In this document: positions 24,988-64,000 of the stretch, one piece after another | How the letters are laid out: the number at the start of each line of letters is the position of its first letter | Position numbering within the stretch: position 1 is the first letter of the stretch | Source of the DNA: a virus | Direction: 5' to 3' (one strand) | DNA: 64,000 nucleotides | Virus record (IMG/VR): IMGVR_UViG_3300027741_000029 | Coordinates: 1-64,000 of that record | Made by a program: the position numbers and the translations under genes | Notes under the pieces: generated by a model | The model's input: only the letters and a program-made list of their open reading frames with translations | Databases searched by the model: none | Told to the model about the DNA's origin: nothing

Positions 24988-27222
24988 ATGACACAGTTTA
25001 ATAGCAATAACGACCTTGAAAAAATTGTTAAAGTAGCCAAGCAATTTGCTGCTGAAAACCAACATCAATACTTTACAGTAGAACATCTACTGTATTCTAT
25101 GCTGCATGAGAAAGGATTCATGCGTGTATTACAATCTACGGGCGTGGATGTAGAAAATCTTGTTAAAGAGTTAGAAGATTATATCTTTGACAATTATCCA
25201 CAAAGCAATTCAGACAGTGAACCAAAGAAAACCCAAAGTCTTGAGCGAGTCTTTAACCGTGCGTTTACGCAAGTAATTCTACTTGGTCGCCAAACTATTC
25301 ATATCAGTGATCTTTATCTTTCAATTACTAAAGAAGCACATAGTCACGCAGCATATTATCTTAAGAAATATGGAGTAGAACCTGAAAAGGTTATTACAGC
25401 ATATAATAAAGAAAAGGGTAAGAAATCAATTGGGCAAGCTGCCAATGCGCTTGAAGAACATTGCACTAACCTAAATGAAATGGTTCGCAATGGCAAAATT
25501 GAAGCAGTAATTGGTCGCACCACTGAACTTGCTGATATGACACAAATTCTTGCTCGTAAGAATAAGTGCAATGTGTTGCTTGTAGGTGATTCTGGCGTGG
25601 GTAAGACTGCTATTGCCGAAGGTCTTGCATATAACATTGTTAATGGTGATGTTCCAAAGTTCCTTAAAGACCATGAAGTCTATAGTCTAAACATTGGTTC
25701 ACTATTGGCTGGCACAAAGTATCGTGGTGACTTTGAAGAAAAGTTACAAGAGATTATTTCGGCAGCTACTGAACTTGGCAATATCATTTTGTTTATTGAC
25801 GAAGCACATCAGATGCGTGGTGCTGGCAGTGGCAGCAACAGTGCGGTAGATTTCTCTAATATGTTGAAGCCAGCACTTGCTCGTGGTGACTTTAAGGTTA
25901 TTGCATCCACTACTTGGGAAGAATATACTCAGCAGTTTGAAAAAGACCGTGCGCTTATGCGTCGTTTCAACCGTGTTGCTATTGATGAACCAAGCATTGC
26001 GGATTGTAAAACTATTCTTCTTGGCATTAAAGAAAGTTATGAAACCTTCCACAATGTTAAGATTACCGATGCTGCTATTAGTGAAGCAGTAGAATTGAGT
26101 GCTCGTTATCAGGCAGACAAGAAACTGCCAGATAAGGCTATTGACCTTATTGATAGTGCCGCAGCATTACGCCGCACCAAGGCACGTGGCTCACGCACTA
26201 TTGATGTTGCACAAATTCGTCGTGAACTTTCTCGTATCACTGGTATTCCAGAAGCACAGTTAGGTGCAGAGAACACACAAAAGATTATGCCTAATATTGG
26301 TGCCGAGATCAAGGCAGTTGTATATAACCAAGATACCGCAGTTGACAAGGTGTTAGACCGTGTATGGGTATCACAGGCTGGTCTAAAGGCTGATAATAAG
26401 CCTGTTGGTTCATTCCTGTTCCTTGGACCTACTGGCACAGGTAAAACAGAACTTGCAAAGCAATTAGCAGATCGTTTAAGCATGAAACTGCTGCGCTTTG
26501 ATATGAGTGAATATCAAGAGCGTCATTCTATCTCACGCCTTATCGGTGCGCCGCCTGGCTATGTTGGATATGAAGATGCTAACCTTGCTGGTGGCTTGCT
26601 CATCAGTGAGATCGCCAAGAACCCACACTGCATCATTCTCTTTGACGAGATTGAAAAGGCACATCCTGATGTTTCACAGGTGTTGCTGCAAGTAATGGAC
26701 GAAGGTTTCATCACTGGAACCAATGGCAAGCGAGCAGATTGTCGCCAAAGTATCCTTATTATGACCAGTAATTTGGGTGCTGCTGATAGCGAACGCAATG
26801 TTATTGGTTTTGGTGGCGGAACAAATGTAGACGCAGTTGATGCTGCTGTTAAAGAATACTTCCGTCCAGAGTTCCGCAATCGTGTTGATGCGATTGTTAC
26901 ATTCAACAAACTTGATACGGCTACTATTCGTAAGGTTGCAGAGAAGTTCATTCGTGAACTTAATGAACAACTTGCCCTAAAGAATACATCAGTATCACTT
27001 ACTGATTCTGCGTGGAATTGGTTATGCAAAACGGGTTATACTCCAAGTCTTGGTGCCAGACCAATGCATCGCACAATTCACGAACATATTAAAGTTCCGC
27101 TAGCAAAGAAAATACTGTTTGACAAGACAGAAAATCATGCTAGTATTAAGGTAGACCTAAATGTTGACAAGTTGGAATTGGTAGCGCAAGATGACCGAGA
27201 TAGCAGAACTAACGCTGATTGA
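24988..27222 (+). CDS. clpA: ClpA-type AAA+ unfoldase
   Basis: two Walker A motifs (GDSGVGKT, GPTGTGKT), IGAPPGYVG, IGF loop (VIGFG), no ClpB middle domain. Confidence 0.9.
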   Translation: MTQFNSNNDLEKIVKVAKQFAAENQHQYFTVEHLLYSMLHEKGFMRVLQSTGVDVENLVKELEDYIFDNYPQSNSDSEPKKTQSLERVFNRAFTQVILLGRQTIHISDLYLSITKEAHSHAAYYLKKYGVEPEKVITAYNKEKGKKSIGQAANALEEHCTNLNEMVRNGKIEAVIGRTTELADMTQILARKNKCNVLLVGDSGVGKTAIAEGLAYNIVNGDVPKFLKDHEVYSLNIGSLLAGTKYRGDFEEKLQEIISAATELGNIILFIDEAHQMRGAGSGSNSAVDFSNMLKPALARGDFKVIASTTWEEYTQQFEKDRALMRRFNRVAIDEPSIADCKTILLGIKESYETFHNVKITDAAISEAVELSARYQADKKLPDKAIDLIDSAAALRRTKARGSRTIDVAQIRRELSRITGIPEAQLGAENTQKIMPNIGAEIKAVVYNQDTAVDKVLDRVWVSQAGLKADNKPVGSFLFLGPTGTGKTELAKQLADRLSMKLLRFDMSEYQERHSISRLIGAPPGYVGYEDANLAGGLLISEIAKNPHCIILFDEIEKAHPDVSQVLLQVMDEGFITGTNGKRADCRQSILIMTSNLGAADSERNVIGFGGGTNVDAVDAAVKEYFRPEFRNRVDAIVTFNKLDTATIRKVAEKFIRELNEQLALKNTSVSLTDSAWNWLCKTGYTPSLGARPMHRTIHEHIKVPLAKKILFDKTENHASIKVDLNVDKLELVAQDDRDSRTNAD

Positions 27223-58892: not shown

Positions 58893-58920
58893 TTGACAAA
58901 CCCGATAAATATGTTATATT
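58893..58920 (+). promoter_or_regulatory. early sigma70-type promoter
   Basis: TTGACA-N16(TG)-TATATT. Confidence 0.8.
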
Positions 58921-58947
58921 GGTTATAGTCAATTGGAGAGAACCACC

Positions 58948-59268
58948 ATGCGTAAAACCCTAGCAATCTTACTCGCAGCCGCAACATTATTTACCGCAAC
59001 GGCAGTAAATGCTGACTGGAACGGGCATCGTCATTATGGCGGTGGTGGTGGCAATGGTGGCAATTGGGTTGCTCCTCTGGTTGGTGGGTTGATTGTTGGT
59101 GGTATTCTAGGCGGTATGGCGCAACAGAACCAACAACAGTATTATGGTCAACCACAATATTATCCACAACCACAATACTATCAGCCGCAGACGTTTTGTC
59201 GCTTGGTTCCTGTGTATGATGCATGGGGCAATTATGTAGGTCGTCAACGTCAGTGCTGGCAACAATAA
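58948..59268 (+). CDS. secreted Gly/Gln/Tyr-rich protein
   Basis: signal peptide, glycine-zipper helix, C-terminal Cys pair. Confidence 0.75.
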   Translation: MRKTLAILLAAATLFTATAVNADWNGHRHYGGGGGNGGNWVAPLVGGLIVGGILGGMAQQNQQQYYGQPQYYPQPQYYQPQTFCRLVPVYDAWGNYVGRQRQCWQQ

Positions 59269-61987: not shown

Positions 61988-62351
61988 GACCGATTGGACA
62001 CATGAATTATATCATCTTGCACACGGTGAAGATGCGTTCATTCCACATATAAATCAAAAAAATATCTATATTCTTTATTGGTATAATAACAATAAAAATT
62101 TTGGTTTCAGGCTCAATAACACTGCATTTGAGATTATGCGCAATGCTGGTTATAAATTCTATGAGCATCAAATTGACAGACGGAAGTATCAAATCAATGG
62201 CAAAGAACTAGTGTTAATGGATCGCTATCATAACCACCCTTGGTTTTACCAAATGAGCAAAGGTGAACTATTCCTAATGGATAGCGAACTCTCTATGATG
62301 TTAGAACTTTGTGGTGGAAATTTAGGGCAAGCTATTCAAAATATGTCTTGA
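61971..62351 (+). CDS. hypothetical protein
   Basis: ATG at 61971. Confidence 0.7.
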   Translation: MTQKSKTDWTHELYHLAHGEDAFIPHINQKNIYILYWYNNNKNFGFRLNNTAFEIMRNAGYKFYEHQIDRRKYQINGKELVLMDRYHNHPWFYQMSKGELFLMDSELSMMLELCGGNLGQAIQNMS

Positions 62352-62375
62352 CAGATATATAATCCATGCTATATT
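62348..62375 (+). promoter_or_regulatory. early sigma70-type promoter
   Basis: TTGACA-N16(TG)-TATATT followed by cataatataagcaatgg. Confidence 0.85.
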
Positions 62376-62401
62376 CATAATATAAGCAATGGGGAAAGGC
62401 A

Positions 62402-62521
62402 ATGCGCAGCGCAGAAGCAAGAGAATTAGCGAAACCGCTGTACCGTCAGCGAATAGTTCTTGCCAAAAAAGGCAAAGGCAGTTATAATCGTAAGAAGCAA
62501 AAGGAAACTAGCAATGACTGA
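62402..62521 (+). CDS. arfA: ArfA-like alternative ribosome-rescue factor (39 aa), not in ORF track
   Basis: MRSAEARELAKPLYRQRIVLAKKGKGSYNRKKQKETSND matches the ArfA core PLFRQR...KKGKGSYxRK; SD and own promoter. Confidence 0.75.
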   Translation: MRSAEARELAKPLYRQRIVLAKKGKGSYNRKKQKETSND

Positions 62522-63161
62522 TACCATTTCTCTCAAAGATGCCATGACTGCCGCCGTAGCCGCCCAACGGGTTAATGGCAAGTATATCAAGCGTTATGAT
62601 GCCAAGGAAGGTGAACTTTCCAATGGCGCACTTATGCGTGAATTTCTCAATCCAGAAATGGTAAACTTTGACCATTTGCCACAAGACATTGAAATTGCTG
62701 ATCAAATTCTAGAGTATCTTGATAGCAAAATGATTGAACTTATTGCTGGCACTCTCCATGATTATTGGAAGAATCTTGTCCTATTGACAGAACAAAAGGC
62801 AATTAATGCCAAGGATTTCAAGACCTTAGCCTTGGTTGCCAGCGTTCCTAACTCCTATTTTAACGCAATTGGGCGTGAAAAAGCGCAGGATGAACTGCGT
62901 GTTATTGCCGAAAATAGCCGTCATATTGGCAAGGTTGGCGACAATATTGAAGCAGATTTGACCATCAAATCAGCGGTTTATAGTGCCAACTATAACAAAT
63001 GGTATCATACCGCCCTCACTGCTGACCAAAATTTGGTCTGTTTTCCGCTGTCAGAACAGTTAAATCGGGGCGATATTATCGCTATTTCGGCTAGAATTCA
63101 CAAGCATGATGACAATAATCAGACCCGTTTACACTATGTGCGGATCAAAAAAAGTGCTTGA
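62514..63161 (+). CDS. hypothetical protein with probable C-terminal OB fold
   Basis: HIGKVGDNIEADLTI...TRLHYVRI. Confidence 0.7.
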   Translation: MTDTISLKDAMTAAVAAQRVNGKYIKRYDAKEGELSNGALMREFLNPEMVNFDHLPQDIEIADQILEYLDSKMIELIAGTLHDYWKNLVLLTEQKAINAKDFKTLALVASVPNSYFNAIGREKAQDELRVIAENSRHIGKVGDNIEADLTIKSAVYSANYNKWYHTALTADQNLVCFPLSEQLNRGDIIAISARIHKHDDNNQTRLHYVRIKKSA

Positions 63162-63185
63162 CAACCCTTAAATCTGTGTTATATT
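63158..63185 (+). promoter_or_regulatory. early sigma70-type promoter
   Basis: TTGACA-N16(TG)-TATATT followed by cataatataagcaatgg. Confidence 0.85.
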
Positions 63186-63215
63186 CATAATATAAGCAAT
63201 GGAAAGGTATACCCC

Positions 63216-63419
63216 ATGAACCACATCGAAGCCATCCGCATGGATTTAACCGCTCTTGAAGCCTCATATTCACTTTATATGGATACCGAATGTTATGATG
63301 AAGCCAATATGGTATCAAAAGCCATCGACATGCAGTGGGGCTTGCTAATTGCGGCAATCCGTGCAGAAGACCCCCATACCACAGAAGCCGATATCCGTTA
63401 CTTTGAAAATAATGCTTGA
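63216..63419 (+). CDS. hypothetical early protein
   Basis: own promoter and SD. Confidence 0.7.
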   Translation: MNHIEAIRMDLTALEASYSLYMDTECYDEANMVSKAIDMQWGLLIAAIRAEDPHTTEADIRYFENNA

Positions 63420-63443
63420 CAACTCCTAAATCCATGTTATATT
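63416..63443 (+). promoter_or_regulatory. early sigma70-type promoter
   Basis: TTGACA-N16(TG)-TATATT. Confidence 0.85.
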
Positions 63444-63472
63444 AAGTTATAGTCAATTGATGGAGAACACGG

Positions 63473-63643
63473 ATGCGCAATTCTTGGTCATTTTCTCAGT
63501 ATCTTGAAGAAATCATCACCCTAAGCGAAATCGTTGAAATTCCTGGCATTGAGGAATCCCGTGCTTCTCTTATCACAGAAATGTGGGCTAAATTTCCTAA
63601 AGAATGTGTGGCAATCGGTCTCACTGACGGGGTTAAAAAATAA
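63473..63643 (+). CDS. 56-aa early protein, not in ORF track
   Basis: GGAG SD; MRNSWSFSQYLEEII...GVKK. Confidence 0.65.
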   Translation: MRNSWSFSQYLEEIITLSEIVEIPGIEESRASLITEMWAKFPKECVAIGLTDGVKK

Positions 63644-63646
63644 CCC

Positions 63647-63674
63647 TTGACAGCCTCTAATTCTGTGTTATATT
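63647..63674 (+). promoter_or_regulatory. early sigma70-type promoter
   Basis: TTGACA-N16(TG)-TATATT followed by actaatataagcaatgg. Confidence 0.85.
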
Positions 63675-63700
63675 ACTAATATAAGCAATGGAGCGGCGAA

Positions 63701-63979
63701 ATGGCACAAGTAAGCACCCGTAAGGCTAAGATTTCCACTATCCTTCATAACCGTTATTTTACCAAAGGTGTACAGGATGCGGTAGCAGGTCGCCCATTTG
63801 ACCCCGATTATGACAAGTGGGAAACTGCTTCTCACGGTGCCGCACAGTGGTGTTACGAGCGTGGTCGCCAATATGGTATTGCCACAGGCGGTAAAGTTCC
63901 TACTAAAACTGGTAAGCGAATTAACTATTTTGCTATTCGTGAGTTTAACCGTCTTTACCATGATGGTTCAATTATCTGA
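63701..63979 (+). CDS. hypothetical early protein
   Basis: own promoter and GGAG SD; YERGRQYG. Confidence 0.7.
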   Translation: MAQVSTRKAKISTILHNRYFTKGVQDAVAGRPFDPDYDKWETASHGAAQWCYERGRQYGIATGGKVPTKTGKRINYFAIREFNRLYHDGSII

Positions 63980-64000
63980 TAAAAAGTGCTTGACAACCCC

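Follow-up and report, generated by a model that had tools for sequence, protein, structure and literature searches.

Near the end of a stretch of viral DNA of 64,000 nucleotides, which was analysed in full and is referred to here as the window, lies a small open reading frame that sequence comparison identifies as a genuine phage gene and a homologue of the ribosome-rescue factor ArfA. Its product (mini-ArfA) is trimmed at both ends relative to the Escherichia coli protein, and its gene appears to have been freed from trans-translation control. The most likely function, which we put forward with modest confidence, is that of a putative ribosome-rescue factor working with the RF2 of the host.

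62402–62521, + strand: mini-ArfA gene, 39 amino acids, corresponding to E. coli ArfA residues 12–50, with a natural TGA stop.

The earlier note on this DNA had described an ArfA-like frame of 39 amino acids at 62402–62521 with a natural stop. The frame exists, its translation (MRSAEARELAKPLYRQRIVLAKKGKGSYNRKKQKETSND) includes the string that was quoted, and it closes with a TGA at 62519–62521 that overlaps the next gene. The likeness to ArfA is borne out by the Pfam profile PF03889, which mini-ArfA matches with 38.8 bits (E 6.3e-10, against a gathering cut-off of 25.5) over profile positions 20–43 of 44, and by matches to E. coli ArfA chains of known structure (5MGP, 7OJ0, 5U4I, 5MDV and 5H5U; E of about 3e-4), in which residues 9–33 of mini-ArfA align with residues 20–44 of E. 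coli ArfA. Across all 39 residues the identity to K-12 ArfA is 41%, and the E. coli motifs PLFRQR and KKGKGSYMRK can both be read from the K-12 gene. A longer start call with an identical product (P0001) and its relatives at 85–90% already carry PF03889. An NCBIfam search with mini-ArfA returned no match, and a PHROGs search returned weak matches to two families of 'unknown function' and nothing else.

The identical peptide is encoded by nine fetched IMG/VR loci. In L002, the aligned locus among them that differs, three nucleotides differ from the window within the frame, all three of them synonymous for mini-ArfA, and the promoter and leader are conserved. The overlapping frame at 62389–62487 was rejected as a gene, as it starts in a leader motif common to other cassettes and its protein is not conserved. 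Also rejected, as spurious, were the long top matches in phmmer (562–1552 amino acids; P0008–P0012 and P0017), which outrank the true relatives; P0009, which was read among them, is a TPR-repeat protein in which AEPLYRQALEIRKKALG repeats mimic the 39-residue query, and such matches are a trap for the automated annotation of the mini-ArfA family.

The DNA of the window reads in one direction, is of phage origin and has a G+C content of approximately 38–40%. Its family-B DNA polymerase shares no more than 49% identity with the polymerases of jumbo phages that infect Sinorhizobium, Agrobacterium, Vibrio and Erwinia, and its flap endonuclease is 46% identical to counterparts in PA5oct-like and Yersinia jumbo phages. 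A contig of 87 kb in IMG/VR, whose ArfA-like gene is identical, has an estimated completeness of 26%, which implies a genome of more than 300 kb. The source of the window is an uncultured T4-related jumbo phage, with which the polymerase and nuclease matches agree; a megablast search of the mini-ArfA region against 50,697 phage records gave no matches. No tRNA, tmRNA or any Rfam family was found within the window, and a search of three related partial virus records, which are fragments, gave no RF-1 domain; the partner of mini-ArfA would therefore be a release factor of the host. The window also encodes a protein-quality-control ATPase.

24988–27222, + strand: 744-residue ClpA/ClpB-type double-AAA+ unfoldase with Clp_N, AAA, AAA_lid_9, AAA_2 and ClpB_D2-small domains.

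This unfoldase matches phrog_4871, 'ATP-dependent protease', so that the phage carries such an ATPase together with a ribosome-rescue homologue.

The mini-ArfA gene belongs to an array of small promoter-led cassettes that occupies the last 5 kb of the window.

62348–62375, + strand: sigma-70-type promoter, with TTGACA, a 16-nucleotide spacer and the TG-extended -10 element TATATT.
62376–62401, + strand: conserved leader ATAATATAAGCAATGG and purine-rich ribosome-binding stretch GGGGAAAGG, from a five-cassette alignment and reading of the sequence.
58893–59268, + strand: second cassette, with the gene of a 111-residue protein (58933–59268) behind a promoter of the same type (58893–58920).
63158–64000, + strand: continuation of the promoter-plus-small-gene array, with promoters at 63158, 63416 and 63647.
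63216–63419, 63473–63643 and 63701–63979, + strand: small array genes, each behind a cassette promoter.

The promoter at 62348 agrees with the consensus at 11 of 12 positions in addition to the TG, ends 27 bases before the mini-ArfA ATG and shows no change in the relatives L002, L010 and L011; a Shine–Dalgarno stretch (GGGG/AAGG) lies 3–11 nucleotides before the same ATG. The promoter format recurs at 58893, 62348, 63158, 63416 and 63647, with a partial site of the promoter–leader cassette at 63990, and a search with the promoter pattern gave eight matches where 1.06 were expected. The cassettes are near-identical, with CTTGACA-N13-TGnTATATT followed by the leader or a variant of it and by a purine-rich ribosome-binding stretch, and each drives one or two small genes; Pfam and PHROG searches with the small genes of the 63158–64000 array returned no match. 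The 'strong early promoter' proposed earlier thus stands as a pattern, with mini-ArfA as the first gene behind it, while its early timing is a presumption drawn from the sigma-70 form.

Directly behind mini-ArfA lies a gene that is predicted to be coupled to it in translation.

62514–63161, + strand: translationally coupled gene, 215 amino acids, with an ATG that overlaps the mini-ArfA stop (ATGACTGA) and a predicted C-terminal OB fold.

A gene of this kind, encoding 213–234 amino acids, directly follows and overlaps mini-ArfA in 23 loci of the lineage of the window, and the linkage holds at mini-ArfA identities down to approximately 61–65%. A Pfam search with the 215-residue protein gave no match, and in PHROGs it falls in two families of unknown function. 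Its AF2 model has a mean pLDDT of 59.5, with a poorly modelled helical N-terminal half and a confident five-stranded barrel at residues 135–215. This barrel resembles the OB folds of RPA, of the anticodon-binding domains of aminoacyl-tRNA synthetases and of MCM-N (VIA Z of 8.8–7), and in Foldseek it gives weak matches to IF1 and S1, none of them specific; the C-terminal 80 residues are modelled as a generic OB fold. In 24 other viral loci, from ordinary T4-like phages, the gene that directly follows and overlaps mini-ArfA is instead a homologue of the 111-residue protein that the window encodes in its second cassette (a cluster of 25 members, the copy in the window included), in which a signal peptide is combined with a His/Gly-rich stretch and a membrane segment rich in Gly. 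At L022, the one locus of this T4-like group annotated in the analysis, mini-ArfA follows gp45, gp44, gp62 and regA, and in a third background it lies among tail and lysis genes, so that the family is present in at least three phage backgrounds.

In most phage loci the mini-ArfA stop overlaps the next start, as it does in the window or in the forms AAATGA or ATGCGTAA. Such overlaps are what would be expected if the short frame served mainly to deliver ribosomes to the downstream gene and its likeness to ArfA were a relic; but the peptide keeps its sequence across several phage types and in front of at least three unrelated downstream genes, and the differences in L002 are all synonymous, which makes a mere coupling function highly improbable.

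The architecture of the phage genes was compared with that of 76–78 distinct bacterial arfA genes (from Enterobacterales, Shewanella, Rheinheimera, Agarivorans and others). At the C-terminus, the bacterial frames continue for a median of 25 residues after GSYxR (range 14–68) and end in a hydrophobic stretch, whereas the phage frames continue for a median of eight (57 of 58 within 4–19); the description of the product as tail-less was therefore apt, as the destabilizing hydrophobic tail is missing. Within the 120 nucleotides past the motif, bacterial genes have an uninterrupted stem with a median of 17 bp (minimum 10) at 38% G+C, against a median of 9 bp at 45% G+C in the phages. The window transcript folds no better than shuffled sequences (z of -0.46), while the known long hairpin of E. 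coli arfA is evident. None of 50 distinct phage ORFs is without a stop codon. With the hairpin and the destabilizing tail missing and a real stop present, synthesis should proceed whether or not tmRNA fails, and mini-ArfA is, as far as can be read from its gene, freed from trans-translation control. A terminator-like hairpin at 62436–62451 was considered as a non-stop device and rejected, being a 5-bp stem in the PLYRQR codons of a kind found five times where 3.9 were expected. Autoregulation through RF2 was likewise rejected: TGA stops are not enriched, with 20 of 50 mini-ArfA genes against a background of 141 of 410 long ORFs.

Mini-ArfA is shortened at its N-terminus as well, a feature that the earlier note did not mention: its first residue corresponds to residue 12 of E. 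coli ArfA, and residues 1–11 are absent. In bacterial proteins KGKGSY is preceded by 33–36 residues that include the motif HxxGxIxDNA(I/L)xAL, and in the phage proteins mostly by 21–28; the G.I..N motif occurs in 73 of 78 bacterial and in none of 50 phage ORFs, and the phage N-terminus carries (K)xR(N/S)xxAKxL instead. An in-frame stop rules out an N-terminus of bacterial length in 23 of the 50 phage ORFs, among them that of the window, where a stop 29 codons before KG forbids a 33-residue N-terminus. What is left is conserved: in the N-terminal decapeptide Arg2 and Leu9 are invariant across the phage family and Ala6 is nearly so, and the positions that contact RF2 are likewise conserved. A tree built from 35 columns separates 50 phage from 46 bacterial sequences by one branch with support of 100/99, the samples being the top 80 of each pattern-based scan, which may have missed intermediates. 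At four IMG/VR loci (L046, L047, L049 and L050) the mini-ArfA core ends a stop-to-stop frame of 119–122 codons that has no ATG nearby and whose N-terminal extension is acidic and basic; this may represent a longer, fused form.

The structures of ArfA on the ribosome allow these residues to be placed. The C-terminal basic part of ArfA sits in the vacant mRNA tunnel and residues 21–30 lie in the A site; Gln27–Glu30 add a strand to the RF2 sheet, Phe25 contacts β4 and β5 of RF2, and Leu19, Leu24 and Phe25 bind Trp319 of the RF2 switch loop (PMC5378476; PMC8012679). Truncation to residues 1–40 inactivates ArfA (PMC8012679). Mini-ArfA retains the amphipathic helix (equivalent to residues 14–24) and the contacts made by ArfA Leu20, Leu24, Phe25, Gln27, Arg28 and Val29, as Leu9, Leu13, Tyr14, Gln16, Arg17 and Ile18, respectively. 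At the sequence level its Gln16-Arg17-Ile18-Val19 segment (QRIV) aligns with the strand-forming Gln27-Arg28-Val29-Glu30, and the basic channel segment KKGKGSYNRKKQK is present in a product that extends to the equivalent of residue 50, beyond the inactive 1–40 length. We infer, with good support from the alignment, that mini-ArfA docks on the ribosome and binds RF2.

Activation of RF2 is a separate matter. Residues 2–16 of ArfA are disordered when RF2 is compact and fold into a minidomain when RF2 opens (Demo et al., PMC5378476); in this minidomain Thr7 and Lys8 lie on h44 and Ile11 packs on Ala18, holding RF2 open (PMC5378476). The ArfA(A18T) variant recruits RF2 but does not activate it (PMC5378476; Müller review, PMC8012679). 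In the window protein HxxGxIxDNA is missing, and with it residues 2–11 of the RF2-activating segment formed by residues 2–16; the position aligned with Ala18 is Arg (Lys or Arg across the phage family), Leu19 is replaced by Glu, and the KH motif, kept in some relatives, reads QK. As the activating segment is missing, activation of RF2 by mini-ArfA cannot be assumed, and these substitutions, with the loss of residues 1–11, weigh against rescue activity. The literature surveyed contained no N-terminal deletion of ArfA.

Two other outcomes of docking have to be weighed here. Mini-ArfA could recruit RF2 and keep it compact and inactive, as ArfA(A18T) does, thereby sequestering RF2 and stalled ribosomes and depressing host translation or altering termination at UGA. 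The bulky Lys or Arg at the Ala18-aligned position, the absence of residues 1–11 and the disorder of the N-terminus in the inactive structure all point this way. However, the TGA usage of the phages is ordinary, in the counts given above, so that trapping RF2 would harm the phage itself, and the occurrence of the family in many unrelated phage types, small podophages included, argues for a benign helper; a trap for RF2 is considered decidedly improbable. Alternatively, the protein could fill the decoding centre and the empty mRNA channel and exclude tmRNA–SmpB (and ArfA or ArfB) without itself triggering release, which would protect phage products from ssrA tagging and degradation or block host responses that depend on tmRNA. 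ArfA, SmpB and ArfB all occupy the same channel, a SmpB-tail peptide acts as an inhibitor of trans-translation (PMC8012679), and mini-ArfA has lost the activating segment. Ribosomes blocked in this way would nevertheless stay blocked, hurting phage translation too, and a plug has no need of conserved RF2-contact residues or of a conserved N-terminal decapeptide; this outcome therefore seems unlikely, although it has more to recommend it than the trap.

Rescue of stalled ribosomes with host RF2 is favoured over both because the N-terminal decapeptide is conserved, because BrfA activates RF2 with an unrelated N-terminus, and because a family that did no more than jam ribosomes would harm the phage. 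The precedent of BrfA, in which a quite different N-terminus still activates RF2 (PMC8012679), applies more widely: BrfA of Bacillus subtilis and ArfT of Francisella are, like mini-ArfA, small proteins with a basic C-terminus for the mRNA channel, and these release-factor-dependent rescue factors can differ greatly at the N-terminus and yet activate the release factor. No sequence similarity of mini-ArfA to BrfA or ArfT was detected in searches, and brfA, unlike the mini-ArfA gene, is made from non-stop mRNA. E. coli ArfA (YhdL) is closer, sharing the PL(F/Y)RQR(V/I) mid-region and the KKGKGSYxRK segment with mini-ArfA, which is likewise tiny and very basic and would be expected to sense the empty mRNA channel and to bind RF2 by strand addition. 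Unlike E. coli ArfA, mini-ArfA is without HxxGxIxDNA, the in-frame hairpin, the hydrophobic tail, the KH motif and the origin from non-stop mRNA; it is also phage-borne, stands behind a strong promoter of constitutive type and is coupled to a downstream gene.

For ribosome binding, the recruitment and activation of RF2 and the biological purpose of mini-ArfA, we infer the following course. Once host RNA polymerase reads the strong promoter, mini-ArfA would be made from an intact mRNA, whether or not tmRNA is working, and would bind ribosomes stalled at the 3′ ends of broken messages. It would recruit host RF2, and the peptide would be released without an ssrA tag, so that ribosomes could return to the pool while the cell fills with mRNAs truncated by RNA cleavage that the phage or host defences drive. 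A plausible purpose is to counter host RNase or tRNase defences, or the mRNA decay that the phage itself drives, and the gene neighbourhoods offer anecdotal support for it.

A single peptide pattern recovers mini-ArfA relatives from at least 161 viral loci in IMG/VR; the best 80 of these yield the 50 distinct ORFs, all of which keep the frame and the motifs. Among 401 sampled Pseudomonadota genomes, 36 have a match, in every case in an open frame of 59–166 codons. Homologues in cultured phages were sought by tblastn followed by reading by eye.

Caulobacter phage Cr30, L174:1444–1596: uncalled gene, two genes upstream of an RNA ligase.
Acinetobacter phages Ac42 and ZZ1 and relatives: 39 amino acids, 'hypothetical', near rIIA.
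Ralstonia phage RsoM2USA, L177:1501–1623: uncalled gene, on the strand opposite an annotated hypothetical gene.
Roseobacter phage CRP-212 (MZ892988.1), L162:2480–2605: uncalled gene, 41 amino acids, in another frame under the 3′ end of gp38.
Pelagibacter phage HTVC027P gp30: 58 amino acids, 'hypothetical', overlapping the small terminase gene.
Citromicrobium phage vB_CbaS-RXM g10: 60 amino acids, annotated as ArfA, three genes after ArdA.
Microcystis phage Mwe-JY26: CDS of 52 amino acids, 'hypothetical', among small hypothetical genes.

In CRP-212 either gp38 is over-extended or two genes overlap. Phages of Brevundimonas, Ochrobactrum and Erythrobacter gave tblastn matches only. The tree places RXM g10 within the group of sampled phage sequences; HTVC027P gp30, which is outside the tree sample, has motifs in common with mini-ArfA when read by eye. 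All three proteins carry RNPxAKxL, a K/R-Y/F-K/R core and a KG(K/R)GS(Y/F) tail and end at natural stops. gp30 and RXM g10 have extra N- or C-terminal residues and belong to small or medium phages of alphaproteobacterial hosts, whereas the clade of the window is the shortest form and resides in a jumbo T4-related phage.

Several of these phages infect hosts without ArfA, given that a survey of 15,259 genomes confined arfA to Gammaproteobacteria, some of the Betaproteobacteria (37 of 1,000) and a few members of Bacillus, and recorded it in none of 2,376 alphaproteobacterial genomes (PMC11633108). An arfA of Enterobacterales type, encoding a protein 65% identical to E. coli ArfA, was observed in a record titled Martelella alba BGMRC 2031 (L113), which points to a mislabelled or contaminated record and not to an ArfA of Alphaproteobacteria. 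Alphaproteobacterial hosts without arfA are also a caveat for the rescue function, as far as compatibility with their RF2 is concerned. A bolder proposal is that the mini-ArfAs are a dedicated tool of counter-defence or takeover, deregulated, with an alternative N-terminal means of activating RF2, and deployed in ArfA-less hosts. They would then work with the release factors of Alphaproteobacteria, and perhaps of cyanobacteria, with a basic residue in place of the fold-back strand, and would keep ribosomes free when RNA cleavage in abortive infection, or phage-driven destruction of host mRNA, creates non-stop complexes. We regard this as speculative and, on present evidence, doubtful.

Phage ArfA genes were not wholly unrecognized: they have been annotated automatically in places, the JGI pipeline naming some relatives 'stalled ribosome alternative rescue factor ArfA', and the domain is mentioned in two papers. 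One noted PF03889 in HTVC027P gp30, which is highly expressed at 3 h post-infection and again late (PMC12753301), and the other listed RXM g10 as ArfA in a genome description (PMC8953757). The searchable literature yielded neither a biochemical or genetic study of any phage ArfA nor a description of the trimmed architecture. What is new here is the separation of phage from bacterial proteins in the samples compared, the loss of the N-terminal segment and of the tail and hairpin, the real stops, and the cultured phages in which the gene is uncalled or hypothetical.

Bacteria cannot do without ribosome rescue, for which ArfA is seen as a tightly repressed back-up that is confined to Gammaproteobacteria and some Betaproteobacteria. 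The mini-ArfAs represent a widespread phage form without the repression device and without the N-terminal activating segment, found also in phages of ArfA-less hosts. Culturable systems, such as Caulobacter phage Cr30, the T4-like Acinetobacter phages and Ralstonia phage RsoM2USA, make its function directly testable. If these proteins are active, the stalling of ribosomes on non-stop messages would be a true bottleneck of infection, RF2 could be activated with less than the E. coli structures imply, and phages would bring a rescue pathway into lineages without one.
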